DNA from: a virus
Strand: one strand, 5' to 3'
Length of the DNA: 64,000 nucleotides
Virus record (IMG/VR): IMGVR_UViG_3300021963_009388
Coordinates: 1-64,000 of that record
Shown here in pieces: positions 1,159 through 37,745 of this stretch. Below the pieces are notes generated by a model, which did not search any database, had not been told where the DNA came from, and saw only the letters and a program-made list of their open reading frames with translations. Positions within the stretch are counted from its first letter, which is position 1, and each line of letters begins with the position of its first letter. The translations under genes and the position numbers were made by a program.

Positions 1159-1414
1159 TTTTAACCAATGGGCAGTAGGCAAATCCCTAGAACAGATGCT
1201 TACTATCTTCTTAACAAACCGTTTAATAAGAATAGGCGACAAAGACATATGGCCGTCATCCATCGTAGTTAACGGATGCCACTATGAGTTCGTATTCAGA
1301 GTGGGCAACGAGCTAGATGAAGATAGAGGGTGGTGGTCTTTTAAAGATGAGCCTATGGTGTACAGCATCATGGCTACTGAAGAAGACATGCTAAGAGTAA
1401 GGGAAAAATTATGA
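1151..1414 (+). CDS. hypothetical protein
   Basis: MDDFNQW... ORF; its stop overlaps the first MIRK unit (ATGA). Confidence 0.6.
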   Translation: MDDFNQWAVGKSLEQMLTIFLTNRLIRIGDKDIWPSSIVVNGCHYEFVFRVGNELDEDRGWWSFKDEPMVYSIMATEEDMLRVREKL

Positions 1415-1590
1415 TAAGAAAAACAAATGCACATCCTATTTCTAAAGAATGGGAAAAATCTCGACTGTGTTCATGGATTAGTGGGTGGAGCACGTTTGAT
1501 TACAAATCAGCAAACGGAAAATTAAATTACACGTTTTCTGCACTAAACAATTGGTTTCATCACTCTCGTTGTTGGGGGGAGAGACCATGA
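1411..1590 (+). CDS. S/W-rich peptide 1 (MIRKTNAHP...CWGERP)
   Basis: Manual translation, 59 aa; ATGA overlaps at both ends. Confidence 0.7.
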   Translation: MIRKTNAHPISKEWEKSRLCSWISGWSTFDYKSANGKLNYTFSALNNWFHHSRCWGERP

Positions 1591-1790
1591 TAAGAAAAGT
1601 AATCGAATCTTCATCTTGGGGCTGGACTAGATCTGACCGAATTAGTTCGGCTCTGTCTAAATACGGCCGACGTACTATTCATTCTATTTGTTGGACTATG
1701 GCTAGAGATTCGTTTTGGGTTCACTTCGGGGCTTGGTCTAAGTCTAAGCATCAGTCTAGGTCGGGCCCTTGGTATGAAAGGGCTAGATAA
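1587..1790 (+). CDS. S/W-rich peptide 2 (MIRKVIESSSWGW...)
   Basis: ORF track, internal MIRK start; paralog of unit at 7800. Confidence 0.75.
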   Translation: MIRKVIESSSWGWTRSDRISSALSKYGRRTIHSICWTMARDSFWVHFGAWSKSKHQSRSGPWYERAR

Positions 1791-1939
1791 TGATAAGAAA
1801 AACACAACCTGCGTCTGTGGCTTGGGCTTGGTCTAGGTCTGGGTCTAGTTCTTGGTCTTGGTCTTGGCCTGGGTTTAATTCTTGGTCTTGGTCTAAGTCT
1901 AGGACTAATTCTTGGTGCTGGGAAAGGACCTCTCGATAA
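1790..1939 (+). CDS. S/W-rich peptide 3 (MIRKTQPASVAWAWSRSGSSSWSWSW...)
   Basis: Manual translation, 49 aa; TAATG overlap. Confidence 0.7.
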   Translation: MIRKTQPASVAWAWSRSGSSSWSWSWPGFNSWSWSKSRTNSWCWERTSR

Positions 1940-1989
1940 TAAGAAAAACAGTATGGGGTAAATCTAAGAGTTGGAGGATAGGAAGATGA
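1936..1989 (+). pseudogene. degenerate unit 4 (ATG>ATA; IIRKTVWGKSKSWRIGR)
   Basis: Start mutated; reads as the 5' end of unit 2237 joined to the 3' end of unit 2484 at AAATCTAAG. Confidence 0.55.
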
Positions 1990-2240
1990 GAATGAAATCA
2001 GTGTGGTGTGGGTCTAGGTCTTGGTCTAAGTCTAGCTTGTCTACTCCTATGATTGAGCCTCGCGCGTCTCAGTCTTGGTCTAGGGCTGGATGTACACCTG
2101 AGGCTTGGTCTGAGTTTGGCTCTTGGTCTAGAGCTTTTCATAAATGTAGGTATACGTGGTCTAATTGTTGGAGCCGTCTTGGGAATAGACTTGCGTATGC
2201 ATGCTGGCAAAAATCTTGGAATTGGAGAATACACCAATGA
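1986..2240 (+). CDS. S/W-rich peptide 5 (MRMKSVWCGSRSW...)
   Basis: ORF track; ATGA overlap. Confidence 0.7.
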   Translation: MRMKSVWCGSRSWSKSSLSTPMIEPRASQSWSRAGCTPEAWSEFGSWSRAFHKCRYTWSNCWSRLGNRLAYACWQKSWNWRIHQ

Positions 2241-2422
2241 TAAGAAAAACAGTATGGGGTAAATCTAAGTCTTGGAGCTGGGCGGAGGCCATATCGGGGA
2301 CTGGGTCTTGGGCTTGGTCTCGGACTTCGTTTAACTCTTGGTTTAGGCCAGGGGTGGTACCTTGGTCTAGGTCTTGGGTAAATCTAAAAGGAAATTCCGG
2401 CGCTTGGAGAATACACCAATGA
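2237..2422 (+). CDS. S/W-rich peptide 6 (MIRKTVWGKSKSW...)
   Basis: ORF track, internal MIRK start. Confidence 0.75.
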   Translation: MIRKTVWGKSKSWSWAEAISGTGSWAWSRTSFNSWFRPGVVPWSRSWVNLKGNSGAWRIHQ

Positions 2423-2487
2423 TAAGAAAAACAGGGTCTTGGTCTGGGTCTTGGTCTGGGTCTAAATGTTGGGAGAGCAGACTATGA
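2419..2487 (+). CDS. S/W-rich peptide 7 (MIRKTGSWSGSWSGSKCWESRL)
   Basis: Manual translation, 22 aa; coupled at both ends. Confidence 0.6.
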   Translation: MIRKTGSWSGSWSGSKCWESRL

Positions 2488-2669
2488 TAAGAAAAACAGT
2501 ATGGTTTGGGGCTGCGTCTTGGACTGACTCTTGGCGTGAGTCTGATTCTTGGTCTAAGTCTTTTAGCTGGTATAGATCTAGGGCTGGGTGCTGGGATGGG
2601 TCCAATTCTTGGAGTTGGACTTCTTCTAGATGCTTGGATAAATCTAAGAGTTGGGGGATAGGCCGATGA
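2484..2669 (+). CDS. S/W-rich peptide 8 (MIRKTVWFGAASW...)
   Basis: ORF track; paralog of unit at 8170. Confidence 0.75.
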   Translation: MIRKTVWFGAASWTDSWRESDSWSKSFSWYRSRAGCWDGSNSWSWTSSRCLDKSKSWGIGR

Positions 2670-2869
2670 TAAGAAAAATAAGGACCCATGAATCAAAGTG
2701 CTGGACAGATAGAAGACCTACATCATTCTCAGCGAACTATTACTTTATAGATCGTTCATGGAACTGGGGGTGGCAGCATTGTATGTCATCTCCTTGGTTA
2801 GGTATAGGCGGCTGGTGCAATAGTCTAAGCTCAGGAGGGTGGAGTTTAAACTATTGGAGAAACATTTGA
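2666..2869 (+). CDS. S/W-rich peptide 9 (MIRKIRTHESKCW...)
   Basis: ORF track, internal MIRK start. Confidence 0.75.
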   Translation: MIRKIRTHESKCWTDRRPTSFSANYYFIDRSWNWGWQHCMSSPWLGIGGWCNSLSSGGWSLNYWRNI

Positions 2870-3060
2870 TGATAAGAAAAATAGTCATATCCGGGTCCGT
2901 TTCATGGACAAATGATTTTGTCCGCAATAACAGGTGTTTTTTAAGCGACATGATGGCGGCATTTTCGTACATGAACACATCCACTAGGTCTGGAATTGGA
3001 AGTCAGAGCAACCGTGGTTGGTCTGTTTTAAGATCGCTGTCGTGGTCCAAACACCGATAA
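2869..3060 (+). CDS. S/W-rich peptide 10 (MIRKIVISGSVSW...)
   Basis: ORF track; TGATG overlap. Confidence 0.7.
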   Translation: MIRKIVISGSVSWTNDFVRNNRCFLSDMMAAFSYMNTSTRSGIGSQSNRGWSVLRSLSWSKHR

Positions 3061-3077
3061 CCTAACTAGGAGAACCA

Positions 3078-3299
3078 ATGATCAAAAGTACAGTTGGAAA
3101 CACTATGGCCCAAGGGTATAGCCGTGCATGGGGAACATTAAGTCGTACATGGGGCTTAACAAGCAGTGGTTCGTTTACAGAATCTAAAGTGCGTTCTACT
3201 ACAAAACTGTGGCGCGGCTGTAGAGGAGTAGTATGGTCTAGTTTAACTATATCTTCTTCGTCATGGAGCAGTAGATTTTCAGGGTCCGTAAGGAGCTAA
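3078..3299 (+). CDS. S/W-rich peptide 11 (MIKSTVG...)
   Basis: ORF track; AGGAG SD. Confidence 0.7.
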   Translation: MIKSTVGNTMAQGYSRAWGTLSRTWGLTSSGSFTESKVRSTTKLWRGCRGVVWSSLTISSSSWSSRFSGSVRS

Positions 3300-3300
3300 C

Positions 3301-3495
3301 ATGATAAGAAAACTTTTGTATCCATTGCATCAAAGTAAGATGTCCGTCTGCTGGACTAAGGACAAAAAGCTGAATAGGCTCTGGTCAGAAAACACGACCA
3401 TATCTGGACACAAGCATAGTGGTATAACGTGGGCTTGGGCTCACTTCAATCGCTTGCCTTGGTCCATATTAGAACCTTGGAGAGTTATTTCATGA
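3301..3495 (+). CDS. S/W-rich peptide 12 (MIRKLLYP...)
   Basis: ORF track; AAGGAG SD. Confidence 0.7.
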   Translation: MIRKLLYPLHQSKMSVCWTKDKKLNRLWSENTTISGHKHSGITWAWAHFNRLPWSILEPWRVIS

Positions 3496-3647
3496 TGATA
3501 AGAAGAAGAATACACCCACTTGATTCATCTAAATCATGGTCTGATCCCTGGTGTTACTCTTTGTCCGGGTCTGAAGATTATGCTTACTCTGTGTCTTGGT
3601 CGAATTGGTGTCAATGGGGTAAAAATAGTCACTCGGTTGGTTTTTAA
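3492..3647 (+). CDS. S/W-rich peptide 13 (MMIRRRIHP...SKSWSDPWCYS)
   Basis: ORF track; similar to unit 14. Confidence 0.7.
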   Translation: MMIRRRIHPLDSSKSWSDPWCYSLSGSEDYAYSVSWSNWCQWGKNSHSVGF

Positions 3648-3669
3648 ATAGGCTTTGGAGAGGTCGCTA

Positions 3670-3849
3670 ATGATACTAAAACGCAAAGCATACTTAATTG
3701 GAGACGTCTCCAAATCTTGGTCTGAGCCTTATTCTTACTCTGTGGCTTGGGCGGATGACTGGAGATGGAGTAGAGATTGGAAGAACGGTTGGTTTTTAAA
3801 CACGTTACGAGCCTACTATAGGCAGTCTAAAGGAGGACCTCGTGGTTGA
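3670..3849 (+). CDS. S/W-rich peptide 14 (MILKRKAY...SKSWSEPYSYS)
   Basis: ORF track; GGAGAGG SD. Confidence 0.7.
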   Translation: MILKRKAYLIGDVSKSWSEPYSYSVAWADDWRWSRDWKNGWFLNTLRAYYRQSKGGPRG

Positions 3850-4084
3850 ATGGAAACCTACTGAATATGATATAGGATGGCTGGACTCAGTCTTTAGAAT
3901 ATTAAAAGAAGGCGGGTCATGGATAGCTCCTATCACAGGGCAGATGTTTGAAAAACGAGGAAACCTTTTCGTTCTAATGAACGAAGATACTCCTGACACA
4001 AGACGCATCTTTGAGAGAAGCCAAGTAATAGGGCCTAAGATTGGTATTAAAGTTATTAAACTATCGGAGGTGGATAGTGCTTAG
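3842..4084 (+). CDS. hypothetical globular protein embedded in the array
   Basis: 80 aa of ordinary composition; AGGAGG SD. Confidence 0.7.
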   Translation: MVEWKPTEYDIGWLDSVFRILKEGGSWIAPITGQMFEKRGNLFVLMNEDTPDTRRIFERSQVIGPKIGIKVIKLSEVDSA

Positions 4085-4241
4085 ATCCCGTATGCATATG
4101 TCTCAATCCTGGTCTTGTGGGCGAAGCGCATCAAGAGCAGCATCAGATTTTTGGGGAGTATCCAATATTTTTGCTGGATGCTACTCTTGGAGCTGGGTAA
4201 ATAACTTGTCGATTTCAGAAAATTTTATGGAGTTTGAATGA
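4077..4241 (+). CDS. S/W-rich peptide 15 (MLRSRMHMSQSW...)
   Basis: GTG start after GGAGG; ATGA overlap with the next unit. Confidence 0.55.
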   Translation: MLRSRMHMSQSWSCGRSASRAASDFWGVSNIFAGCYSWSWVNNLSISENFMEFE

Positions 4242-4435
4242 TTAGAAGAACAGCAACAATCCCAGCTAGTTGGTTTGGTGCTTCTAATGCGTCCTGGGCT
4301 GTACTCCATATAGCAACATGGGGAAGGCCGTCATCGCCAAGGTTTCAATCAACTTCCCATTCACAAAGCTGGTATAGGTCTAGCAGCTGGGAAGATGATG
4401 GTTCTGCTAGTTACAATTGGAAATTAAGGAGGTAG
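4238..4435 (+). CDS. S/W-rich peptide 16 (MIRRTATIP...)
   Basis: ORF track. Confidence 0.7.
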   Translation: MIRRTATIPASWFGASNASWAVLHIATWGRPSSPRFQSTSHSQSWYRSSSWEDDGSASYNWKLRR

Positions 4436-4436
4436 T

Positions 4437-5033
4437 ATGAAAAACAAAGGATATGAAGCTTGGGTGGCGCGACTCAAGTTCTTCAACGGGGAATTCAATT
4501 TTGGCCCCGTTAAGCGCGTCTTAAATGAAGACGGGCGACTGCACTGCGACACGGGTCCAGCGTATGTTAGTCCTACTCGTATTATGTGGTATAAGAACGG
4601 CAGGCAGCACGGAATGGACGCCGACAAGTTCGGCAGTATTCTGTACTATTACGAGGGGGTGCGTATTCCTCCACATTTCTTTACCAAACCAGAGGATGTC
4701 ACTGTAGAGGAGGTCTTAAGGCATCCTAACGCAGAAGTAAAATATGTTGGTATGAAGATAGTTGGGCTGGACAACATCATGTCTATGCCTACAACAAAAG
4801 TAGTGCATAGAGACGTGGATCAGTTCGGCAGAGAAAGAGTTCTCTTTCAGATCCCAAAGATCTTTGAGGAACCAACTCTTTATGTTAAAGTTGTTAATTC
4901 TACGGCGGAGCCAGATGGTAGTTTTAAAAATTACTTTCTGTGCGTCCCGCCAAACGTGAAAACGTGTGTCGAGGCGGTGGCGTGGACAAACTATATGAAG
5001 GCAGATAAGTATGCTCCTTCACAAGAATCTTAG
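4437..5033 (+). CDS. DUF6745-like protein
   Basis: GRLHCDTGPA...WYKNG repeats and C-terminal VVNSTAEPDGSFKNYFLCVPP...EAVAWT. Confidence 0.65.
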   Translation: MKNKGYEAWVARLKFFNGEFNFGPVKRVLNEDGRLHCDTGPAYVSPTRIMWYKNGRQHGMDADKFGSILYYYEGVRIPPHFFTKPEDVTVEEVLRHPNAEVKYVGMKIVGLDNIMSMPTTKVVHRDVDQFGRERVLFQIPKIFEEPTLYVKVVNSTAEPDGSFKNYFLCVPPNVKTCVEAVAWTNYMKADKYAPSQES

Positions 5034-5054
5034 TTTTAATCAAAGGAATTAGTT

Positions 5055-5381
5055 ATGAAGAAGTTTCAAGCGCGTCAGGGTGATATTTTCTTTAGGGTTG
5101 TTAAGAAGCCAGCGGGCTTAGCTAAGCTAAAGCCATTGGGCAGTAAGATATTGGCGTTCGGCGAGGTGACTGGCCACAGTCATCAAATTACTTCAGCAAA
5201 TGAAGTGGGTTCTTTTGTAGATGAGAAAGGAGATATCTATCTCTTCTCTGCAGAGGAGACTGTCGTGGGTCATGACGAGCACTCAAATATTACGCTCCCT
5301 AAGGGATCGTGGGTGTGCGTGACACGTCAGCGAGAGTATGATCCGCTAGCTGCTGAGAAAGAGCGAAAGGTAGCAGACTAG
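5055..5381 (+). CDS. conserved phage protein with RQGD / GEVTGHSH / HDEH / RQREY motifs (putative metal-binding)
   Basis: Motif pattern recalled from small proteins encoded beside DUF6745 genes. Confidence 0.7.
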   Translation: MKKFQARQGDIFFRVVKKPAGLAKLKPLGSKILAFGEVTGHSHQITSANEVGSFVDEKGDIYLFSAEETVVGHDEHSNITLPKGSWVCVTRQREYDPLAAEKERKVAD

Positions 5382-5620
5382 TGATAAGGAAAGCACTATT
5401 TGGAAACTCGTATAACTGGAGCTTATCAAGCTCCAGTTATAACGTTTCAGAAGTAAGAGATACATTCTACGGATCAACTACTTCGTTCTCTTGGCCTAAC
5501 TGTCCTTGGATGTTTTCCACTAGCTGGTCTTCTTCTGGACTAGCCTGGTCATGGAATTGGTCAGGTGGAGTGCATACATCTTGGGGTTGGAAAGAAGGAA
5601 ATGCAGTGTGGGACAGTTAA
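5381..5620 (+). CDS. S/W-rich peptide 17 (MIRKALFGNSYNW...)
   Basis: GTG start overlapping the previous TAG. Confidence 0.7.
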   Translation: MIRKALFGNSYNWSLSSSSYNVSEVRDTFYGSTTSFSWPNCPWMFSTSWSSSGLAWSWNWSGGVHTSWGWKEGNAVWDS

Positions 5621-5676
5621 GGGTGGAGTCTAAGTAATTAAAATATTGTTAGCTATATAGACAAGTTTAGCTTACG

Positions 5677-5707
5677 GGGGTAGCAGATGTTCTGCTGCCC
5701 CTTTTTT
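5677..5707 (+). terminator. rho-independent terminator
   Basis: GGGGTAGCAGA-TGT-TCTGCTGCCCC followed by T6. Confidence 0.7.
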
Positions 5708-5736
5708 GTTTGAATCACATTCAAGGAGTTGTAATT

Positions 5737-6054
5737 ATGGCTAAGGTTAAAAGCAAAGTGTCTTTAGTTGAGATCGATGGCGCAGCTGCAGCTAGCATGG
5801 CGCAAGTGGCACAGCAGTTTCTTGGGCAGCCGGTAGCGGTGTTATGTGCGCGGTACAACTACCGTGGGATTCTATCTCACGTGGGTGAAGATTGCTTGGT
5901 GCTTGCGCAAGCAAGAGCTGTCGAGACTTCTGGCGCTTCTAGTCAAGAAACACCGAACACTGAAGATCCGATTGGATCTTCTGTGATCATCTCCCTCGGT
6001 GCAGTCGAAATTATTTATCAACCAAGATGGTGCTTTGCACCATTGGATGCGTAA
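5737..6054 (+). CDS. putative Sm/LSm-like beta-barrel protein
   Basis: FLGQPVAVLCARYNYRGILSHVGEDCLVLAQA resembles the Sm1 motif; AAGGAG SD. Confidence 0.55.
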   Translation: MAKVKSKVSLVEIDGAAAASMAQVAQQFLGQPVAVLCARYNYRGILSHVGEDCLVLAQARAVETSGASSQETPNTEDPIGSSVIISLGAVEIIYQPRWCFAPLDA

Positions 6055-6302
6055 TGAGGACGCATACTAGACCGGGAAGGCCTTTTGACAACCCAATTCT
6101 AGGCCCGACTTTTTCGTGGACGCAGGATAAGTTACATGGCTGGCCCTACCCTGCTAAGTCCTGCGAATGGGCAAGGGGAGTGAGATTTAATAGGGCTTGG
6201 AAATCAGCTGAGTTTCTATCCATATCAACACTGAATAGGGACTCAAGCTATTCTTGGTCTAAGGGAATCCGAGGGTCTATAAAGACAAGGAACGGAGAAT
6301 GA
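6054..6302 (+). CDS. S/W-rich peptide 18 (MRTHTRPG...)
   Basis: TAATG overlap; W-rich. Confidence 0.6.
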   Translation: MRTHTRPGRPFDNPILGPTFSWTQDKLHGWPYPAKSCEWARGVRFNRAWKSAEFLSISTLNRDSSYSWSKGIRGSIKTRNGE

Positions 6303-6472
6303 TAAGGAAAATAGTACACGCTAGGACCAGATCTTGGGCTAATTATACGTATCAATCTTACTCTGGAACTTGGATCAAACCTGGTTGTCCTTGGGGAATA
6401 AATATGCCTTGGTCTTGGTCTTGGTCTTGGTGTAGACCTTGGAGTATGGAATCTTGGAGGACACCCCGATGA
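6299..6472 (+). CDS. S/W-rich peptide 19 (MIRKIVHARTRSW...PWSWSWSWC)
   Basis: Manual translation, 57 aa. Confidence 0.7.
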   Translation: MIRKIVHARTRSWANYTYQSYSGTWIKPGCPWGINMPWSWSWSWCRPWSMESWRTPR

Positions 6473-6714
6473 TAAGAAAAATAAGAAGAAGCACTGGAAT
6501 TGGAAAAGACTGCGAGGTTTCTAGTCTTTGGTCTAAGAGTTGGACTCTATCTGAGTCTGGGCGCCCAGGTGAGTTCAGTTCTAGCAATTGGGCTCAGTCG
6601 GAGGCTTTTCCTAGATATAACACAGAAAGGCACTTGTCTGAGTCTTCGACATCTTGGCGTTATAACCGGCATGACTCTTGGTATGACTTTTGGCATTGGA
6701 AGGATAACACATGA
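6469..6714 (+). CDS. S/W-rich peptide 20 (MIRKIRRSTG...)
   Basis: ORF track. Confidence 0.7.
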   Translation: MIRKIRRSTGIGKDCEVSSLWSKSWTLSESGRPGEFSSSNWAQSEAFPRYNTERHLSESSTSWRYNRHDSWYDFWHWKDNT

Positions 6715-6893
6715 TAAGAAACGCATGGACTGGGTCATCATACGCTTGGTCTACTTCTGGATACACGTCATGGGGCTTAACTAAGTATCGCCCTTCTCTA
6801 ATGCAGTCTGACCATTGGAATCATAATTGGTGTTTCAGTGGATGTTGGGCTGAAGATACAGACATGTCAGGCTCTTGGAGGATGCACATGTGA
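6711..6893 (+). CDS. S/W-rich peptide 21 (MIRNAWTGSS...)
   Basis: ORF track. Confidence 0.7.
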   Translation: MIRNAWTGSSYAWSTSGYTSWGLTKYRPSLMQSDHWNHNWCFSGCWAEDTDMSGSWRMHM

Positions 6894-7114
6894 TAAGAAG
6901 AGCATTGCTCGGTAAATCTGGTTCTTGGATTAAATTTCGATCTGAGTCTGAGTTTTTGTACTCAACAATTTGCTCCCAAGCTTGGAGTATGCCCTATGAT
7001 GGGGCTAATGCTTGGACTAGCTCTTGGCGTAAGTCTTCGAGTTGGGTTGGAAGAAGGTTTGGCTCCAGGTTTGACTCCAGGCCTGACTCCAGGTCTTGGA
7101 GGCATCAAATATGA
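6890..7114 (+). CDS. S/W-rich peptide 22 (MIRRALLGKSGSW...)
   Basis: GTG start with GTGA overlap; paralog of unit at 8525. Confidence 0.7.
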   Translation: MIRRALLGKSGSWIKFRSESEFLYSTICSQAWSMPYDGANAWTSSWRKSSSWVGRRFGSRFDSRPDSRSWRHQI

Positions 7115-7299
7115 TAAGAAGACCAGTGACAACAAATGGGCGCTCCCAGTGTTGGGCTAGAGATCAAGAAATGTCTTGGAGCGAAAGAAGGTATACGCCT
7201 TGGCCGCGTTATGCAGAGTGCTGGATACTGGAGTGGTGCTGGAGTGGGCTTTGGGAAACTGATGGAACCTACTCGGAGTTATGGGGGGAAAATATATGA
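7111..7299 (+). CDS. S/W-rich peptide 23 (MIRRPVTT...)
   Basis: ORF track. Confidence 0.7.
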   Translation: MIRRPVTTNGRSQCWARDQEMSWSERRYTPWPRYAECWILEWCWSGLWETDGTYSELWGENI

Positions 7300-7490
7300 T
7301 AATGATAATGAAATGTCTACCTGACGCTAGGCTCCGAGATAGGCCCATCTCCCAGTCTTGGACTCTAAACCGGCATTGGTCTAGGGCTATGTTCTTGCCT
7401 TGGTCCAGCATCAATGTTTGGTTTTGGTCTGATTCTTGGAGTATAGACGAGACCTGCTCAGATTCTTGGATGCGGAGGAATAACGAATGA
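7296..7490 (+). CDS. S/W-rich peptide 24 (MIMIMKCL...)
   Basis: ORF track. Confidence 0.65.
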   Translation: MIMIMKCLPDARLRDRPISQSWTLNRHWSRAMFLPWSSINVWFWSDSWSIDETCSDSWMRRNNE

Positions 7491-7642
7491 TAAGAAGATT
7501 TATATTTCCTAAGTCTGAGTCTTGGTCTCAAAACGGGAGTTGGGGTTCCAACTCTGGGCTTAGAATTTATAGCTCGGCTTGGAGCATAGAAGAATTCTGG
7601 TCTACGTGTTGGGCTATGGAGCGAGACTGGAGTAATAAATGA
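7487..7642 (+). CDS. S/W-rich peptide 25 (MIRRFIFPKSESW...)
   Basis: Manual translation, 51 aa. Confidence 0.7.
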   Translation: MIRRFIFPKSESWSQNGSWGSNSGLRIYSSAWSIEEFWSTCWAMERDWSNK

Positions 7643-7803
7643 TAAGAAAAGCGTTGTCTAGTTCTTGGTCTAGGTCTAAGTCTAGCTCTTGGTATAGTGC
7701 TAGGTCTTGGCCTGTGCATTTGTCTTGGTCTAGGTCTATGTCTAGGTCTATGTCTTGGTCTTGGTCTTGGTATGGGGATAGTCCTTGGAGGGCACACAGA
7801 TGA
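7639..7803 (+). CDS. S/W-rich peptide 26 (MIRKALSSSWSRSKS...)
   Basis: Manual translation, 54 aa. Confidence 0.7.
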   Translation: MIRKALSSSWSRSKSSSWYSARSWPVHLSWSRSMSRSMSWSWSWYGDSPWRAHR

Positions 7804-8006
7804 TAAGAAAAGCAAGTGAACATGGGTCTTGGAGCTGGACTAGATCTGACCGCCTTAGTTCAGATATGTTTAGCCCCCACTCTGGTATTCATTCTATTTG
7901 TTGGGCTATGACTAGGGATTCGTTTTGGACTCGCTTCGGGGCTTGGTGTAAGTCTAGGCATCGATCTGAGTCTGGCCCTTGGTATGAAAGGACTCGTAAA
8001 TGGTAA
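7800..8006 (+). CDS. S/W-rich peptide 27 (MIRKASEHGSWSW...)
   Basis: ORF track; paralog of unit at 1587. Confidence 0.75.
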   Translation: MIRKASEHGSWSWTRSDRLSSDMFSPHSGIHSICWAMTRDSFWTRFGAWCKSRHRSESGPWYERTRKW

Positions 8007-8173
8007 GAAAAACAAAATGTATTTTTGCTACGACTTTTTCTAAAGGTTGCGCTAGAGCTTATTCTTGGTCTAAAAGTTTTCCTAGGAATGGGTCTAGGGT
8101 TTGGTATAAGTTCGAGTCTGGGTCTTGGACTAATACTTGGGAAAAGTCTAGATGCTGGAGAAGCTCTCGATGA
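8000..8173 (+). CDS. S/W-rich peptide 28 (MVRKTKCIF...)
   Basis: Manual translation, 57 aa. Confidence 0.7.
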   Translation: MVRKTKCIFATTFSKGCARAYSWSKSFPRNGSRVWYKFESGSWTNTWEKSRCWRSSR

Positions 8174-8374
8174 TAAGAAAAGCAGTATGGCTTGGGGCTG
8201 CGGCTTGGGGCTGCGGCTTGGTCTGAGTCTTGGCGTGAGTCTGAATCTTGGGTCGAAGGTGAAAGATGGCCTCAATATAGATTTAGGGCTGATTTACTTG
8301 ATGTGTCTAAATCCTGGAGTCGGGATAGGACTCGGTATTGGAGTAGGTCTTTAAATTGGAGTATACGACGATGA
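8170..8374 (+). pseudogene. unit 29, frameshifted by a 13-nt tandem duplication
   Basis: GGCTTGGGGCTGC x2 (8189-8214); removing one copy restores MIRKAVWLGAAAWSESWRES... Confidence 0.7.
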
Positions 8375-8520
8375 TAAGAAAAGCTAACAACGGCTATCCC
8401 GTCTGGGATTGGCCTGGCTCTATAAGCTGGAAAAGGCCTTCGGCTAAATCGTCTTCTTGGTCTAGGTGCTGGGCTCTATCTTCTGTGTGGCGTACACGTA
8501 ACCCTAACCGTTGGGGATAA
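8371..8520 (+). CDS. S/W-rich peptide 30 (MIRKANNGYPVW...)
   Basis: Manual translation, 49 aa. Confidence 0.7.
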   Translation: MIRKANNGYPVWDWPGSISWKRPSAKSSSWSRCWALSSVWRTRNPNRWG

Positions 8521-8524
8521 ACAA

Positions 8525-8725
8525 ATGATGAAAAACACGTTATCTGCTAGGTCTAATTCTTGGATTTAATTTTGGAGCGAGTCTGAGTCTTTGTCATCGG
8601 TAATTTGCTCCCAAGCTTGGAGTGTTCCCTATGCTGCGTCTAGGATGTGGGCTAGCTCTTGGTGCGAGTCTTCGGGTTGGGGTAGAAGAAATTTTGACTC
8701 CAAGTCTTGGAGTAGTAGCTTATGA
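8525..8725 (+). pseudogene. unit 31 with in-frame TAA at 8567
   Basis: Paralog at 6890 has AAA at the equivalent codon; the frame continues to the TGA overlapping the next ATG. Confidence 0.65.
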
Positions 8726-8889
8726 TAAGAAAAACAGGGTGTTGGTATAAATATAAGTCTTGGTCTAAGTCTAGGTCTTGGTTTCGGAGTAAATCGGCGT
8801 CTGTGTTTGGGTCTTTGTTCTTACCTTGGTCTAGGTCTTGGCATTGGAATAACTCTATAGGTAACTTTAGCTCTAGCCCTTGGGAGTAA
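8722..8889 (+). CDS. S/W-rich peptide 32 (MIRKTGCWYKYKSW...)
   Basis: Manual translation, 55 aa. Confidence 0.7.
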   Translation: MIRKTGCWYKYKSWSKSRSWFRSKSASVFGSLFLPWSRSWHWNNSIGNFSSSPWE

Positions 8890-8895
8890 TAACGA

Positions 8896-9021
8896 ATGAT
8901 TAGAAAAGCGTGGAAAGGGCCTAACTCGTCTAGGTCTTGGTATTTTTGGAATTGGAGTCTAGGTCTCACCTGGTCTAGATGTTGGTCTATGGAACTGGTC
9001 TGGTGGAAAAAACAACGATGA
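8896..9021 (+). CDS. S/W-rich peptide 33 (MIRKAWKGP...)
   Basis: Manual translation, 41 aa. Confidence 0.65.
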   Translation: MIRKAWKGPNSSRSWYFWNWSLGLTWSRCWSMELVWWKKQR

Positions 9022-9206
9022 TACGAAAAGCATGTGCATGTGATAGCGATAGATCACAAGGATGGCAGAACGATAGAGGCAGCTCAGAGCTTTGGTTTAC
9101 AGACATGATGGATTGCTACACGCCGTCTTACTGTTGGAGCGCCCCATATTCGGGCGGCTGCAGCTGGGAGTGGAGGGCGGGAATGGCGAGCTCTTCTAAG
9201 TGGTAA
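9018..9206 (+). CDS. S/W-rich peptide 34 (MIRKACACD...)
   Basis: ORF track, internal MIRK start. Confidence 0.7.
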   Translation: MIRKACACDSDRSQGWQNDRGSSELWFTDMMDCYTPSYCWSAPYSGGCSWEWRAGMASSSKW

Positions 9207-9238: not shown

Positions 9239-9322
9239 ATGCCAAAGGTTAAAGTAAAGAAAAAAATAAAGAAGAGTATCAAAATAAAGACGGGTAATAG
9301 GAAAAAAATAAAAGCGGCTTAA
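9239..9322 (+). CDS. 27-aa Lys-rich micropeptide
   Basis: AGGAGGAG SD; MPKVKVKKKIKKSIKIKTGNRKKIKAA. Confidence 0.5.
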   Translation: MPKVKVKKKIKKSIKIKTGNRKKIKAA

Positions 9323-9380
9323 AGTTAACGCAATGTAGCGTTGACTTATCTAATTTATCAAATTCACGGAGAATGATTCT

Positions 9381-10676: not shown

Positions 10677-10764
10677 CGTCTAAACCAGCTGTTCGGCTAC
10701 GGGTGATTTAATGCAGGCGCAGCCATAGTTCATAAAATTACGACTGTGCGGGCTGGTTTAGACG
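10677..10764 (+). ncRNA. structured leader upstream of the pentamer array
   Basis: Perfect 13-bp stem CGTCTAAACCAGC/GCTGGTTTAGACG enclosing an imperfect inner hairpin. Confidence 0.45.
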
Positions 10765-10787
10765 TTTATTTATACTGATAGCAACAA

Positions 10788-11255
10788 GGCAGGCGTGGTC
10801 CGGCGAGGCCGGTCGAGGCGTGGCGAGGCAGGCACGGCGGGGTCTGACGAGGCAGCTCGGGGCGGGGCGAGGCATGGCAGGCGAGGCGTGGCGCGGTCCG
10901 GCTGCGATCGGCTTGGCAGGCTAGGTGAGGCGCGGCCTGTTCGGGCGAAGCGCGGCAGGCATGGTGCAGTTTGGCGTGGTTAGGATCGGCAGGCGGGGCG
11001 AGGGCTGGCGCGGCGTGGCCAGGCGAGGCATGGCAGGCGAGGTTAGGCCGGGTGAGGTTAGGCGAGGTGCGGCACGGCAGGCTAGGCAAGGCGCTGTCCG
11101 GCTGGGCTCGGAATGGCGAGGCAGGCGTGGTACGGCAGGCGAGGCGTGGCGGAGCCCGGTGAGGTGCGGCAGGGCAGGCACGGCCAGGTGTGGCACGGCC
11201 CGGAGAGGCCTGGCAGGCACGGCAAGGCACGGCTAGGCTGTGTTGGACTAGGGCA
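10788..11255 (+). repeat. GGY-NN pentamer array, 12 units delimited by GGCA (putative guide-RNA array)
   Basis: Delimiters at 10788, 10827, 10876, 10915, 10954, 10988, 11032, 11076, 11120, 11134, 11173, 11212; every spacing is 4+5n. Confidence 0.85.
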
Positions 11256-11354
11256 GTTCAACATAGCTAAGGTACTCAGTAACCACGAGATCATCTATCG
11301 TCTACGATGTGAGGTAGGTGGGTTATTGGGTATCACTTTTTAAAGGAGCAATTT

Positions 11355-16279: not shown

Positions 16280-16575
16280 AATGTATCATGTCTAACACTC
16301 AGGAGGTGCTCATGGCTACTTTAGGATTAGATAAAGATGGTTCAGTGGAGTCGTCTCCACTGAAAAAAGTCAAACCAAAAATAGATAAGGTTATACTTAA
16401 TAATCTTTCTAAGTTAGTGCTCTTTCCAGAAGAGCACATAAAGTGTGAGGCTATCAATGTTTACGACGACAGGTGGCGCGTAAACATTTGGACCTCTGGA
16501 GATAACAATGCCAAGATTGAAAAGTCTTGGTTTGTTGTAGCTGACTCTCTAGGTGCAGTCATATCTTTTAATTAG
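16273..16575 (+). CDS. hypothetical protein
   Basis: ORF; start may be 16288. Confidence 0.65.
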   Translation: MVECIMSNTQEVLMATLGLDKDGSVESSPLKKVKPKIDKVILNNLSKLVLFPEEHIKCEAINVYDDRWRVNIWTSGDNNAKIEKSWFVVADSLGAVISFN

Positions 16576-34750: not shown

Positions 34751-34954
34751 ATGGAAAAAAATAGTGTCGAGTCTTGGCTAACCATTATAAAAGTTGCAAT
34801 CGACCCAGACTCTCCGTTTAAGGGTTTAGTCGATTTACGAGAGATTTTCAACTTACCACTTTCAACACAGCATAAAATACACGATGCCATGACTGAGGAC
34901 GAGCGGGCACAGCTTGCTTTAGTCTATGGCTCTGCAAAAGGAGAAGTAGCATGA
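34751..34954 (+). CDS. hypothetical protein
   Basis: Short ORF coupled to the next gene. Confidence 0.5.
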   Translation: MEKNSVESWLTIIKVAIDPDSPFKGLVDLREIFNLPLSTQHKIHDAMTEDERAQLALVYGSAKGEVA

Positions 34955-35391
34955 ACAGAGGAATATCAGCACTACAAGTTGTAGAAGAATTAGCAGCCAG
35001 CAGATTAGAAGAGATGAAGACTGCGGCCTATAATAGAGCTCGAAATAAAATTAGAAAAGAACAGCGTAATAGATCTAAATGGGATAGCTTAACCAAAATA
35101 GTTTCTGAAATTAGTAGAAAATATCCCATATGCGTAGAGAATGTACAGTTTCCAGAGTCATCAAACCCTTACTTTTCATTCTTATTAAACGACCGCTCTA
35201 CGTATGGTCGTTATGATAGGTTTCATATTCATTTTGTTACTGAAGAAAGCGGAAGAGTAAGCCTTAGATATAGTGATTCTACTGAATATAGTAGATCCCG
35301 TACGCACCCTCTAGCAGATGCTAATACAGTAGATGAGTTAATACCTGCTTTGATAAGTAAACTAGCTGACGTGGTAATTAGCAGGCGGTAA
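34951..35391 (+). CDS. paralog 1 of a three-gene family
   Basis: C-terminal VDELIPALISKLAD. Confidence 0.75.
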   Translation: MNRGISALQVVEELAASRLEEMKTAAYNRARNKIRKEQRNRSKWDSLTKIVSEISRKYPICVENVQFPESSNPYFSFLLNDRSTYGRYDRFHIHFVTEESGRVSLRYSDSTEYSRSRTHPLADANTVDELIPALISKLADVVISRR

Positions 35392-35426
35392 CTAAACAAT
35401 TAAAATTTAAACAAAAAGGGATTAAA

Positions 35427-35864
35427 ATGAAAACAGCAACAGATCTTATAAAAGAGTTAGGTGTTAGCAGATTAGAACAGATTAAGATTGAAAAATTTAA
35501 TGACGAACAACACGAAATAAGAGACGTTGAATGGCGAAAATCTTTTTGGGCCAGCCTTATTAATATAGTTTCTGAAGTTAGTGATAAGTATCCTGAAAAT
35601 GTATGTAAAGTTCAGATTCTTTATGGAAGAGAGCCATACTTTTTATTTAAGTATCAAGAAAAGGATGCGAGTTGCAAATACGATGGCACCATGTATTTTA
35701 ATAAACAAGATGGAATGGTAAGTCTTCAGTATAGGAAAGATAAGTACGATACTAATAGATGGACAGCCGCAGAGGCTAGAGCTGTGGACCAATTAATACC
35801 TGCTTTAATAAGCGTATTAACTGACATAGTTCATGGATTACCGATTAATAGATGTAAAATTTAA
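35427..35864 (+). CDS. paralog 2 of a three-gene family
   Basis: MKTATDLIKEL...VDQLIPALISVLTD. Confidence 0.75.
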   Translation: MKTATDLIKELGVSRLEQIKIEKFNDEQHEIRDVEWRKSFWASLINIVSEVSDKYPENVCKVQILYGREPYFLFKYQEKDASCKYDGTMYFNKQDGMVSLQYRKDKYDTNRWTAAEARAVDQLIPALISVLTDIVHGLPINRCKI

Positions 35865-35909
35865 TCAAGATAGTAAAGTGTGCACAAAACAACTTCAAAA
35901 GGAATTAAA

Positions 35910-36404
35910 ATGAAAACAGCAACAGACCTTATAAAAGAGTTAGCAGAGTCAAGGAATAAAGAAGAAAAAGATAAAGCAGAAAAGGAAGCAGAAGAAAATC
36001 GTATACGTCGAATTGCTTTTGATGCGAAACTGTTAAAGCCGTTTTGGCCGTTAATAAATATTATTAACGAGGCTGCAATTCAGTTTAAAGATGTAGTAGA
36101 GCATGTCTCAGTGTATGACGACTACAGACATAACGCTGGTGGTTGGGCTCATTATGTTACATTTAGTTTATTAAATACTAATGAATATGGTCGAAGAGAA
36201 GGAAATGACTTTCTTTTTTTAAGCTTAGACCACGGTATGTTTTCAGTTAAAAAATTTGGAGGGTACGATATGCGCTACGGCACTGGCTCTTATGATGCTC
36301 ACAAAACTATGTTTAGTGCAAAATCGGCAGATGAGCTTATACCTGGTTTAATAAGCCTAATAGCAGATAGAGTTAGAGCCTTTGAGAAAGGTAAAAGTAA
36401 ATAA
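35910..36404 (+). CDS. paralog 3 of a three-gene family
   Basis: MKTATDLIKEL...ADELIPGLISLIAD. Confidence 0.75.
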   Translation: MKTATDLIKELAESRNKEEKDKAEKEAEENRIRRIAFDAKLLKPFWPLINIINEAAIQFKDVVEHVSVYDDYRHNAGGWAHYVTFSLLNTNEYGRREGNDFLFLSLDHGMFSVKKFGGYDMRYGTGSYDAHKTMFSAKSADELIPGLISLIADRVRAFEKGKSK

Positions 36405-36423
36405 ATTTATAGGTGTAAAATAA

Positions 36424-36891
36424 ATGAATATTTTTGTGCTTTCTGAAGACGTTAAGGAAGCAGCTGAGTGGCATGTAGATAGGCATGTAGTAAAGATGCC
36501 ATTGGAGACAGCGCAAATGCTATGCACAGCGCTGTCTTTAAATGGCAACAGTAATGTGGAGTATAAGCCGGCTTTCTTTAAGCACCCTTGCACCATATGG
36601 GCAGCAGCTACCAGAGATAACTTTGAGTGGCTATGCAGGCTAGGCGTAGAGCTTTGCTCCGAATACACTTATAGGTATGAAAGAGAGCATGCTTCAGAAA
36701 AGGTCATTCGCAGCTGCTATGAGAAATATACCAGTGTACCAGCAGGTGCACTAACAAGCTTTGCTCAGGCCATGCCGCTTGAGTATAAGAGTGAGTGCGC
36801 TATTGCGGCGTACAGACTGTATTATGTTAAAGGCAAGAGCCATTTGGCTTCTTGGAAAAAGCGTAGTAAACCTTTATGGTTTAAGGAGTAA
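36424..36891 (+). CDS. pyrimidine-dimer DNA glycosylase (DenV-like)
   Basis: MNIFVL, HVVKMPLETAQML, HPCTIW, FAQAMP, AYRLYY. Confidence 0.8.
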   Translation: MNIFVLSEDVKEAAEWHVDRHVVKMPLETAQMLCTALSLNGNSNVEYKPAFFKHPCTIWAAATRDNFEWLCRLGVELCSEYTYRYEREHASEKVIRSCYEKYTSVPAGALTSFAQAMPLEYKSECAIAAYRLYYVKGKSHLASWKKRSKPLWFKE

Positions 36892-36894
36892 CGC

Positions 36895-37164
36895 ATGGAT
36901 GATTTTTACAAAGAAGAGGTTGTAGCGAAAGCAGCTACAAGCTCTCTGAAGGTTTTAGATATGATAATGCAGGCTGTTAGGGACGCCAAAAGCCCTTTGT
37001 TTTGCCCGGATTACCAGAGTTTTCTTAGGCTTGTTAACGATCCCAAACATGCTGATATCAAGGAGATCCTTGAAAGAACAAAGGCGGAAATAATAAAAAG
37101 CGAAGTCGATAGATTAGAGTTGAGACAAGAAATAATGAAACAGCGGAATCACCTTAATCTTTAA
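36895..37164 (+). CDS. hypothetical protein
   Basis: AAGGAG SD. Confidence 0.65.
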   Translation: MDDFYKEEVVAKAATSSLKVLDMIMQAVRDAKSPLFCPDYQSFLRLVNDPKHADIKEILERTKAEIIKSEVDRLELRQEIMKQRNHLNL

Positions 37165-37175
37165 AGGGAGTTAAA

Positions 37176-37745
37176 ATGAGTGAACCAAAGTATGTTGTAA
37201 TAGAGTACTACGAATCAGATCACGGCGGAAAACCTGGAGATGAGCATAACTCTCTAGCTTTGCATAGAGTAGAGGATGGAGAAGTACAGGCATCTGATGA
37301 TGGTGCTCCTGTCACTAGAGAGGAAGCTCTGGAAATGCTGGCTGCCTTTGATAGACCTATTCACTCGTCTGTGGATGTAGCTGAAGAGGAAGAGCTTAGA
37401 AACATAACTGAGTACGATGGAGACTCTTCTCCTGATCTTGAATTTCTTAAAGCTAAAGCAGACGCTGAATCAAAAATAAAAATGATGCCAATTACTAACG
37501 TATTAAGCCTAATACCATTAGTAAAGTACGTAGAGTTAGAGTCTAAAATTTTAAATGGTCCTACCTGGAGTATACTAGTTGTAAGTGTTAAAATCGATGG
37601 CACAAAACATAGGGATGAGCTTTTAAAGATGGGTCTTACTAATATATCCAAACCTAAGCTATGGGTTGAATGCAACATTTATAAAACTTCCGGTTCTGAA
37701 GGATTAGCTTTTGTAGGCAGCTGCCTTATAAATAAGGACATGTAA
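37176..37745 (+). CDS. hypothetical protein
   Basis: 189 aa; GGGAG SD. Confidence 0.7.
   Translation: MSEPKYVVIEYYESDHGGKPGDEHNSLALHRVEDGEVQASDDGAPVTREEALEMLAAFDRPIHSSVDVAEEEELRNITEYDGDSSPDLEFLKAKADAESKIKMMPITNVLSLIPLVKYVELESKILNGPTWSILVVSVKIDGTKHRDELLKMGLTNISKPKLWVECNIYKTSGSEGLAFVGSCLINKDM

Follow-up and report, generated by a model that had tools for sequence, protein, structure and literature searches.

An array of 34 small + strand genes or gene remnants of 17-84 aa, placed back-to-back between positions 1411 and 9206 of a DNA stretch from an uncultured aquatic phage, encodes tryptophan-studded, mostly basic miniproteins in which serine alternates with other residues. The genes are joined by a single type of start/stop adaptor and differ in content and order between strains, as if exchanged like cassettes. 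The stretch analysed, referred to here as the window, comprises the first 64,000 nucleotides of a 102-kb viral record. The original prediction, made from the sequence alone, had described about 34 chained Ser/Trp-rich micro-proteins with a shared MIRK N-terminus and otherwise divergent bodies; this observation was confirmed. Its interpretation, a diversified peptide library expressed as one or two polycistrons, was supported in part, as detailed below. We found no match to the family in Pfam, PHROGs or PDB and no paper describing it, and any function assigned to it is inferred.

Organization of the array

The pattern ATGAT[ATC][AC]G[AG]A[AG] occurs 23 times in the window, always on the + strand between 1411 and 9018 and never on the - strand; a looser pattern yields 27-29 starts. 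Most units begin with ATGATAAGAAAA (M-I-R-K), and each start lies 7-9 nt after a cTTGGAG sequence providing a Shine-Dalgarno motif. A profile of the family detected units only at 1411-9206 in the whole 102-kb record. The count of 34, which agrees with the original prediction, includes degenerate starts: ATA at 1936, MRMK at 1986, MIKS at 3078, MILK at 3670, MHMS at 4092, MRTH at 6054, MIMIMK at 7296, MVRK at 8000 and GTG at 5381 and 6890.

The left portion of the array opens with unit 1 (1411-1590, MIRK, 59 aa), whose ATG overlaps the stop codon of the upstream gene 1139-1414 (ATGA). It is followed by unit 2 (1587-1790, MIRK, 67 aa), a paralog of unit 27 with 64% aa identity, and by unit 3 (1790-1939, MIRK, 49 aa), which is almost pure (Ser-X)n and contains a hexamer tandem repeat at 1821-1916. 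Unit 4 (1936-1989) is a 17-aa remnant whose start is mutated to ATA and which is 93% identical to the first 41 nt of unit 6. Next are unit 5 (1986-2240, MRMK start, 84 aa), unit 6 (2237-2422, MIRK, 61 aa), the 22-aa mini-unit 7 (2419-2487, MIRK), unit 8 (2484-2669, MIRK, 61 aa), unit 9 (2666-2869, MIRK, 67 aa), which has an ortholog in the related phage L072 with a dN/dS of 0.35, unit 10 (2869-3060, MIRK, 63 aa), unit 11 (3078-3299, MIKS start, 73 aa) and unit 12 (3301-3495, MIRK, 64 aa; dN/dS 0.41 against L072). The C-terminus of unit 13 (3495-3647, MIRR, 50 aa) is cut short because one T found in other strains after 3625 is missing here. Unit 14 (3670-3849, MILK start, 59 aa) precedes an embedded 80-aa gene (3842-4084, +) that is not a family member and is conserved in L072 and in L098. 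Unit 15 (4092-4241, MHMS start, 49 aa) and unit 16 (4238-4435, MIRR, 65 aa; dN/dS 0.31) are followed by two further embedded + strand genes, a DUF6745 gene (4437-5033, 198 aa), which shows 79-95% aa identity in all relatives, and a phrog_27831 gene (5055-5381, 108 aa). This portion ends with unit 17 (5381-5620, GTG start, VIRK, 79 aa). A hairpin resembling a strong intrinsic terminator (5676-5702, +; 12 pairs, 7 of them G-C), followed by a run of Ts, then separates two transcription units, splitting the array into at least two.

The right portion begins downstream from a gene for a predicted Sm/LSm-fold protein (5737-6054, +, 105 aa), whose TAA overlaps the ATG of the divergent unit 18 (6054-6302, MRTH start, 82 aa). 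It continues with unit 19 (6299-6472, MIRK, 57 aa), unit 20 (6469-6714, MIRK, 81 aa), unit 21 (6711-6893, MIRN, 60 aa), unit 22 (6890-7114, GTG start, VIRR, 74 aa), a paralog of unit 31, and unit 23 (7111-7299, MIRR, 62 aa), which has orthologs in four phages with dN/dS values of 0.37-0.50. These are followed by unit 24 (7296-7490, MIMIMK start, 64 aa), unit 25 (7487-7642, MIRR, 51 aa), unit 26 (7639-7803, MIRK, 54 aa), containing a hexamer repeat at 7656-7771, unit 27 (7800-8006, MIRK, 68 aa) and unit 28 (8000-8173, MVRK, 57 aa). Unit 29 (8170-8374) is broken: a 13-bp tandem duplication (8189-8221) shifts the frame, so that the MIRK frame stops at 8226 while the Ser-Trp frame continues from 8192 to 8374. 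Unit 30 (8371-8520, MIRK, 49 aa) corresponds to a cassette that, in other strains and in L072, sits between units 9 and 10. Unit 31 (8525-8725) is also broken, having an in-frame TAA where its paralog unit 22 has AAA; the remainder (8591-8725) is still open. Unit 32 (8722-8889, MIRK, 55 aa), unit 33 (8896-9021, MIRK, 41 aa) and unit 34 (9018-9206, MIRK, ATGATACGAAAA, 62 aa; dN/dS 0.29) complete the array. Four to five units are therefore broken or truncated (those at 1936, 3495, 8170 and 8525, and the 22-aa unit at 2419), a feature absent from the original prediction.

Evidence for a protein-coding frame

To assess whether the open frames could be a by-product of the TCTNGG hexamer, the different reading frames were compared. 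The MIRK frame has 0 stops in 1583 codons, whereas the +1 frame has 92, the +2 frame 166 and the reverse frames 41-122; hexamer bias alone would also leave the +1 frame open. Starting from a motif, the ORF reaches the next motif in 18 of 28 cases, 15 of them with an exact ATGA or TAATG overlap, as compared to 0 and 1 of 28 cases in the other two frames. Between orthologs, in-frame TGG (Trp) is kept in 276/294 positions (94%) while out-of-frame TGG is kept in 42/83 (49-56%), all trinucleotides together being kept at 66-67%. Frame conservation is far better than the hexamer bias alone would give, an outcome that goes against the condition set beforehand for rejecting the prediction. Trp is the most conserved residue, at 94% against 76% overall; hence the Trp positions are not hypervariable, contrary to what the original description of the units implied. 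Paralogs are 25-64% identical, so the bodies are indeed divergent.

The dN/dS ratio is 0.04-0.5 in 13 of 22 ortholog pairs and 1.05-1.6 in the other nine, with flanking genes giving 0.04-0.23. Together with the broken units, the nine high values suggest that many single units may be dispensable. However, synonymous divergence of the units (mostly 0.12-0.27) is lower than in several flanking genes (0.24-0.82), which could reflect a nucleotide-level constraint or recent exchange, and inflates dN/dS. As a hint of expression, contigs of a lake metatranscriptome library cover several units, although these may represent carried-over DNA.

The predicted peptides have a median length of 61 aa and a median pI of 10.15; nine of 71 units are acidic. 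Units are 20.5% Ser and 12.6% Trp, as opposed to 8.3% Ser and 1.4% Trp in the large genes of the phage. TCTNGG lies in frame 0 in 65 of 67 cases. Nucleotide self-similarity is 0.341 at lag 6 and 0.258 at lag 3, and 84% of the Trp residues in a unit share one parity, against a null of 64% (sd 1.3), with Trp/Arg/Lys/Gly on one phase and Ser/Ala/Pro on the other. AlphaFold2 with a 71-row alignment gave a pLDDT of 51.7 and no secondary structure, hence no confident fold.

Junctions, cassette order and decay

The sequence logo of the junctions shows conserved TTGGAG at -15 to -10 and ATGATAAGAAAA at 0 to +11, and start-to-start distances are all 2 mod 3. The flanks of the array are 88-92% identical between the window and L072, yet array content and order differ, with blocks of homology beginning and ending at junctions. 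Contigs from other strains join 2867 to 8370, 8495 to 2869 and 7637 to 2236, with 13 shared letters at the joint. Related large aquatic phages carry 8-16 units each, against 34 here. The role of the junction as a double stop, the conservation of Trp, the reshuffling of cassettes at the junction and the predicted Sm fold of one embedded gene had not been anticipated by the original prediction.

The embedded gene with a predicted Sm fold

The AlphaFold2 model of the 5737-6054 gene product had a pLDDT of 83, and a Foldseek search matched it with probability 1.0 to archaeal SmAP and eukaryotic Sm/LSm proteins. The TAATG overlap (6052-6056) indicates translational coupling of this gene to the right half of the array. 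The Sm-like gene, DUF6745 and phrog_27831 are conserved next to arrays in all relatives; they travel together with such arrays in all close relatives and in several more distant lineages. Arrays with MILK or MIFK junctions are found in more distant lineages. On the other hand, the Sm-like family is far wider than the arrays, with at least 160 protein clusters, and several loci in this subfamily have no Trp/Ser unit directly downstream. The left sub-array is not adjacent to the Sm-like gene, and a search among longer proteins, in which a null is weak evidence, found no fused Sm-plus-tail protein.

Alternative explanations

Among alternatives, it is possible, though less likely than the view favoured below, that the units are counter-defence or host-takeover binders, each a small inhibitor or decoy for a variable and as yet unnamed host protein (a defence sensor, for example, or a protein with aromatic-binding pockets), in a "gene accordion" expanding and diversifying under an arms race. 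Copy number varying from 8 to 34 between related phages, cassette turnover, the nine pairs with dN/dS about 1-1.6 and the location upstream of the replication module, among small genes of unknown function, are in line with this view, and conserved Trp with free spacers is the pattern of short linear binding motifs. Yet no unit matches PADLOC-independent libraries such as Pfam, PHROGs or PDB, and the high dN/dS may be inflated by low dS. We consider it unlikely that the cassettes are largely neutral and self-propagating, a micro-gene "nursery" in which the universal junction and the slippage-prone hexamer drive proliferation by recombination and only a few older units have a function. The broken and mini-units, the dN/dS near 1 in nine pairs and the very low-complexity, recently duplicated units of L113, another genome bearing an array, would fit. 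Against it stand the frame-specific retention of Trp codons, the thirteen pairs under purifying selection and the persistence of arrays in lineages whose Sm-like proteins are only 60-71% identical and which use different junction sequences. The anti-defence decoys, toxins and specificity subunits for the embedded globular proteins listed in the original prediction remain conjectural.

Still less likely are membrane-active, amphipathic beta-type peptides perturbing the host envelope in lysis timing, superinfection exclusion or killing of competitors after lysis. The cationic, Trp-rich composition resembles that of Trp/Arg-rich antimicrobial peptides, and Trp/Arg/Lys and small residues lie on opposite phases; but no hydrophobic segment or signal-like N-terminus is visible in the translations, the array lies with replication-side genes rather than a lysis module, and some units are acidic. 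A nucleotide-level element with incidental ORFs, such as a protein-binding DNA array or a U/G-rich RNA bound by the Sm-like ring, appears very doubtful. CTTGGTCT occurs 30 times on the + strand and never on the - strand (a 132-fold enrichment), the signal has period 6 and not period 3, the start motif is conserved beyond what codon usage predicts, dS is low and an Sm-fold gene is predicted next door. However, TGG conservation is frame-specific, the +1 frame carries 92 stops, several well-conserved units with few hexamers (for example 7111-7299 and 2666-2869) have dN/dS of 0.35-0.5, and there is no Rfam match. Least likely of all is the RiPP precursor library with a minimal leader, matured by an enzyme encoded elsewhere, which the original prediction had listed and which is not supported. 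There are many small variable peptides with a constant N-terminus, and W-x-W-S-K-S-like strings recall the darobactin core; but the constant part is 4 residues, no radical-SAM gene was found in this record or in three relatives of 173-181 kb, and no Pfam-recognisable modifying enzyme is among the conserved neighbours.

A model for the array

We conclude that the locus is a lineage-specific multigene family of microproteins built as (Ser/Ala/Pro)-(Trp/Arg/Lys/Gly) dipeptide repeats deriving from a TCT-NGG hexamer. That these form a real translated family is, from sequence evidence, close to certain; it is a diversified family laid out as coupled polycistrons, as originally proposed. Each cassette is self-contained. 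It opens with ATGATAA..., which is its own start codon and, read one base later, the TGA-TAA double stop for the preceding gene, and closes with TTGGAG, which is both its last Trp codon and the Shine-Dalgarno of the next cassette. With start-to-start lengths of 2 mod 3, any cassette can therefore follow any other and stay translationally coupled. The family turns over by birth and death, as evidenced by hexamer slippage, duplication, frameshift and nonsense decay, and cassettes are re-ordered between strains, probably through recombination at the roughly 13-25-nt junction. Selection acts on the protein and above all on the Trp residues. Apart from the recombination mechanism, which is probable, we regard these points, along with the coupling of the right-hand sub-array to the highly conserved gene with the predicted Sm fold, as established by the sequence comparisons.

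What the products do is inferred, and the explanation as a whole is about as likely to be right as not. Within the libraries searched, no described system with this layout was found. We postulate that the peptides are disordered, multivalent ligands whose evenly phased Trp side chains, helped by Arg and Lys, act as contact points, the Ser-rich spacers being free to vary; copy number and sequence diversity would tune dose and target range. Expression would come before or with the replication genes that follow. The targets may be RNA or an RNP, or host targets; RNA or an RNP, possibly together with the co-expressed Sm-like ring, is the most likely class, but this assignment is tentative as RNA binding is argued from composition only. 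In this view, the peptides would work like the Arg-rich low-complexity tails of eukaryotic Sm and SR proteins.

Genomic context of the array

The window corresponds to the first 64 kb of a 102,495-bp IMG/VR virus record whose source run is a marine metagenome; lake, freshwater and estuary runs were found to be partial holders. All large genes are on the + strand and include a replication and recombination module made up of SbcCD-like genes, two helicases, a UvsX-like recombinase and a family-A DNA polymerase fused to a uracil-DNA-glycosylase-type domain. No cultured phage is close: a search of the INPHARED phages returned no relative of the array, and the best DNA polymerase match is 24% identical. 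The pattern ATGAT[ATC][AC]G[AG]A[AG] occurs 23 times, always on the + strand between positions 1411 and 9018 and nowhere else in the window, and a profile of the family found units nowhere else in the record. Each start lies 7-9 nt after the sequence cTTGGAG, with information content peaking at −15 to −10 (TTGGAG) and at 0 to +11. When degenerate starts are included, the array comprises 34 units or remnants of 17-84 aa, interrupted by four genes that do not belong to the family, at 3842-4084 (80 aa), 4437-5033 (DUF6745, E = 1.7e-24), 5055-5381 (phrog_27831) and 5737-6054. The observation underlying the original prediction, an array of about 34 micro-proteins sharing an MIRK N-terminus, was therefore confirmed.

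Right after the last unit, a 27-codon ORF preceded by a strong AAGGAGG Shine-Dalgarno (9239-9322) encodes an extremely Lys-rich peptide and is followed by a hairpin at 9322-9347. Further downstream, at 10738-11300, lies a GC-rich tract of roughly 5-nt-phased GGC-type repeats. The close relative L072, a locus on a 181-kb contig, has a second, similar tract upstream of the whole block (reverse complement, 3-637). The contig of the window probably broke at that upstream copy, in which case the roughly 10-kb block may be bracketed by these repeats. Elsewhere in the window, a dispersed 16-bp palindrome (GTGGAGACGTCTCCAC and near copies; repeat family D19) occurs about every 7-15 kb, at 16345, 31478, 44454, 52783 and 60165, and three to four adjacent paralogous genes of about 145-175 aa at 34951-37745 share near-identical 47-nt start regions and an internal 62-nt block (repeat families D17 and D18).

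Conservation of the reading frame

The region has a strong period-6 signal (0.341 at lag 6 against 0.258 at lag 3) and its oligomers are extremely strand-biased, CTTGGTCT occurring 30 times on one strand and never on the other, a 132-fold enrichment. It was thus necessary to assess whether frame conservation exceeded what the TCTNGG hexamer bias alone would produce, which was the original prediction's own refutation test. Four results show that frame conservation is far better than this bias alone would give. Starting from a motif, the ORF reaches the next motif in 18 of 28 cases, 15 of them with an exact ATGA or TAATG overlap, while the other two frames do so in 0 and 1 of 28 cases. Over 1583 unit codons, the +1 frame, which a pure TCTNGG repeat would leave open (CTN-GGT), contains 92 stops; the other frames have 41-166. 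Between orthologous units of related phages, in-frame TGG is kept in 276/294 positions and out-of-frame TGG in 42/83, with all trinucleotides together kept at 66-67%. Finally, with a flat scoring matrix Trp is the most conserved residue, at 94% against 76% overall.

Nei-Gojobori dN/dS values for 22 pairs were 0.04-0.5 in 13 pairs and 1.05-1.6 in 9 pairs, as compared to 0.04-0.23 for flanking genes. Since the dS of the units is rather low (mostly 0.12-0.27, against 0.24-0.82 for several neighbours), the high ratios should not be read as positive selection. Contigs of a lake metatranscriptome library cover several units; as DNA can be present in such libraries, this is only a hint of expression and, conversely, the parts of the array left without cover are not evidence of silence.

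The junction motif

Read one base after the A of ATG, the motif is TGA-TAA. The upstream gene is always in that frame and start-to-start distances are all 2 mod 3. The motif is therefore at once a double stop for the upstream gene, a start for the downstream gene and an A-rich opening. The TTGGAG Shine-Dalgarno lies inside the upstream gene and encodes its last Trp, Trp being fifth from the end in 47 of 71 units. ATA and AGA are the commonest Ile and Arg codons of the phage (62% and 42%), yet the motif is more uniform than codon usage alone predicts, which the overlapping TAA explains. Most of the variants that do occur are synonymous (ATT, AGG, CGA and AAG) or conservative (K/R swaps). More distant lineages keep M-I-x-K with different nucleotides, ATGATCCTTAAA and ATGATCTTCAAA; hence, some peptide-level constraint on the N-terminus is likely too.

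Properties of the peptides

The units have a median length of 61 aa, a median pI of 10.15, and a median of 7 Trp and 1 Cys. Ser and Trp account for 20.5% and 12.6% of residues, against 8.3% and 1.4% in the large genes. Trp-Trp spacings are almost only even: spacings of 2, 4, 6, 8 and 10 occur 68, 78, 75, 50 and 52 times, while spacings of 3, 5, 7 and 9 occur 11, 10, 13 and 7 times. Within a unit, 84% of Trp residues share one parity, against a null of 64% with sd 1.3, with Trp, Arg, Lys and Gly on one phase and Ser, Ala and Pro on the other. Of about 496 Trp residues, 186 are preceded and 154 followed by Ser. The scarcity of odd spacings led us to set aside Trp-zipper hairpins, and the thrombospondin type-1 repeat (TSR)/WSXWS Trp-Arg ladder, which calls for i, i+3 spacing and conserved Cys pairs, does not fit the units.

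AlphaFold2 modelling of unit 23 with a 71-row alignment gave a pLDDT of 51.7 and no secondary structure, thus no usable model on which to base a fold search. A profile search of the PDB and a search of Rfam returned 0 hits, the ESM Atlas gave no usable hit, and nothing meaningful was found in Pfam or PHROGs for any of the 71 units. A profile search of 1.84 billion representatives gave 12 hits at E<1e-3, of which 11 are members of the same family, and a single-sequence search of a 5.8-billion collection gave 3 hits.

Related arrays and exchange of cassettes

A pattern scan of IMG/VR, followed by scans with the Sm-like protein, identified the same arrays in eight further contigs of 25-181 kb, each carrying 8-16 units at one locus on one strand. 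With its 34 units, the array in the window is the largest we found, and it has a second sub-array upstream of the trio of conserved genes. In the closest relative, L072, the flanks and embedded genes are 88-92% identical in DNA to the window, but most of the units at 1411-2640 are lacking and others are present in a different order. Homology blocks begin and end at junctions. Contigs from other samples join 2867 to 8370, 8495 to 2869 and 7637 to 2236, with 13 shared letters at the joint. Some units of the window are broken: a 13-bp tandem duplication shifts the frame at 8189-8221, AAA has become TAA in unit 31, one T present in other strains is missing near 3625 and the start at 1936 is mutated to ATA. 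This is birth-and-death evolution with recombination at the adaptor; the phage encodes its own UvsX-like recombinase and SbcCD.

More distant phages, whose Sm-like proteins are 60-71% identical, carry analogous arrays with other junctions. One (locus L113) is an MIRK array of very low complexity. Sister arrays with other adaptors, at L140 727-1902, L143 (reverse complement) 1834-2443 and L142 (reverse complement) 1450-6442, are of two types. One uses ATGATCCTTAAA (MILK) with a roughly 25-residue constant head containing NNxCFGFNxPKSxCWS; the other uses ATGATCTTCAAA (MIFK/MIIK) with a constant LFNGE[IL] tail, where GGTGA serves as the Shine-Dalgarno.

Genes associated with the array

Gene 5737-6054 encodes a 105-aa protein with at least 160 homolog clusters in uncultured phages, at 58-99% identity. 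Its AlphaFold2 model is confident (pLDDT 83) and matches archaeal SmAP and eukaryotic Sm/LSm chains with a Foldseek probability of 1.0 and a target-normalised TM of 0.6-0.8. The gene lies directly upstream of unit 18 and is translationally coupled to it, its TAA overlapping the ATG of the unit (TAATG, 6052-6056); from there, ATGA/TAATG-type start-stop overlaps run almost unbroken to 8173. The Sm-like gene, DUF6745 and phrog_27831 stay together in all relatives, although their order is changed in some distant lineages. In that wider subfamily, whose contexts were drawn only from IMG/VR loci, a Trp/Ser unit directly follows the Sm-like gene in some loci and not in others. By eye only, the N-terminal third of the DUF6745 protein (4437-5033) looks like two MORN-type repeats (G-x-L-H ... 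G-P-A ... W-Y-x-N-G). Sequence searches of the PDB with DUF6745 and phrog_27831 gave nothing. Complex prediction with DUF6745, phrog_27831 and the Sm-like protein, and unit 23 as the partner, yielded a score of 0.17 (mark 0.32), which says nothing for or against binding. Some Sm-like homologs (loci L144-L148) lie on contigs binned into Gemmataceae, Phycisphaerales and Acidimicrobiaceae MAGs, one being a 271-kb contig with two Sm-like copies. As binning of phage contigs is unreliable and these are probably phage contigs swept into bins, they provide only a weak host hint.

Possible function of the microproteins

We consider the expression architecture, the evolutionary mechanism and the fact that Trp is the selected element to be established by the sequence analysis, whereas what the products do, including any binding, is inferred. 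In our reading, the products are disordered multivalent ligands whose phased Trp side chains, with Arg and Lys, would make the contacts. The most economical target class is RNA or an RNP, possibly with the co-expressed Sm-like ring, a suggestion that remains tentative. The original prediction, which read the array as a diversified peptide library with several candidate roles, was partly supported.

A diversified set of host-protein binders or decoys is possible and only slightly less favoured than an RNA target. It is unlikely that the array is a largely neutral nursery of cassettes, and more so that it encodes membrane-active peptides. Inspection of the translations alone shows no hydrophobic N-terminus that might serve, as in Trp/Arg-rich antimicrobial peptides, as an export or release signal. 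A purely nucleotide-level element is now very unlikely, given the stops in the +1 frame and the frame-specific conservation of TGG. Least likely are the RiPP precursors that the original prediction had listed among its options, since the constant head is only four residues (M-I-R-[KR]) and no radical-SAM gene (PF04055, the one enzyme class searched genome-wide) was found in four records (G000-G003, this record and three relatives).

A more speculative possibility, which we regard as doubtful, is that the locus would be a self-renewing generator of Trp-anchored disordered ligands. In this view, hexamer slippage would make new (Ser-X)n bodies, a universal start/stop/Shine-Dalgarno adaptor would express whatever arises, and recombination at the adaptor would reshuffle the set. 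The products would act as multivalent hooks, either as detachable low-complexity tails for the phage Sm-like ring or as decoys that jam a host RNA-guided or RNA-handling machine, in what would be a phage counterpart of eukaryotic RG/RS tails or GW Ago-hooks.

If our reading is right, a clade of large aquatic phages keeps a dedicated, standardised production line for microproteins below normal annotation cut-offs, which would be a clean natural case of gene birth from a simple repeat. It would also show a translational adaptor that lets any cassette follow any other, with Trp, normally the rarest residue, as the selected element. The link to an Sm-fold gene offers a route to an unknown layer of phage RNA biology or counter-defence. 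In practice, these genes are missed or mis-called by gene finders and the repeat breaks assemblies.

Comparison with known systems

We found no paper describing the peptides, the adaptor or the link to an Sm-fold gene, and literature searches on DUF6745, Trp-rich phage small proteins, GW repeats with prokaryotic Argonaute and tandem multigene families retrieved no description of such a system. Prochlorosin-type RiPP precursor families also consist of many small genes with a constant N-terminal part and a hypervariable remainder, but have a long conserved leader and a dedicated modifying enzyme. The GW/WG Ago-hook repeats of GW182/TNRC6 and of some viral silencing suppressors are disordered regions in which only Trp, flanked by small residues, is conserved and acts as a multivalent ligand; Ago-hook proteins bind Trp pockets of an Argonaute PIWI domain. 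The units resemble them in their Ser-flanked, conserved Trp and predicted disorder; however, there is no sequence relationship, the spacing here is strictly even (i+2, i+4 and so on) and no Argonaute or other pocket-bearing target is known for the host.

In eukaryotic Sm, LSm and SR proteins with Arg-rich dipeptide-repeat tails (SmD1, SmD3, SmB, LSm4; RS domains), an Sm fold is associated with a disordered, basic dipeptide-repeat region that contacts RNA or partner proteins. In the phage the repeat is a separate gene rather than a tail, is rich in Trp rather than Arg-Gly or Arg-Ser, and exists in dozens of copies; no homology is implied, and a search for longer Sm-like proteins with a fused tail found none, although this is weak evidence. 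A precedent for the neighbouring gene 5737-6054 is provided by the LSm-like early proteins of Tevenvirinae (GoF, MotB.1, Frd.2), small phage-encoded LSm-fold proteins expressed early and linked to mRNA stability (Kim et al. 2025, PMC12152347). Their sequences are unrelated, and the abstract of that study mentions no associated repeat-peptide genes.

The way cassettes are exchanged works like the PeSL-mediated modular shuffling of ORFan cassettes in the hyperplastic regions of T4-type phages (Arbiol et al. 2010, PMC2839356; Comeau et al. 2014, PMC4122927). There, short conserved regulatory motifs between small non-essential genes serve as recombination sites, so that closely related phages differ by insertion, deletion and replacement of whole cassettes; likewise, homology blocks and contig joints start and end at the junction motif in the arrays described here. 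The locus is not a member of that class, however. PeSLs are a sigma-70-type early promoter plus a terminator stem-loop and their cargo genes are unrelated, whereas in the array a sigma-70 promoter scan showed no enrichment (13 promoter-like sites against 17.3 expected) and only one strong terminator lies inside. Here the motif is a translational adaptor, consisting of Shine-Dalgarno, start and double stop, the cargo is one paralogous family and the cassettes are coupled in a polycistron.
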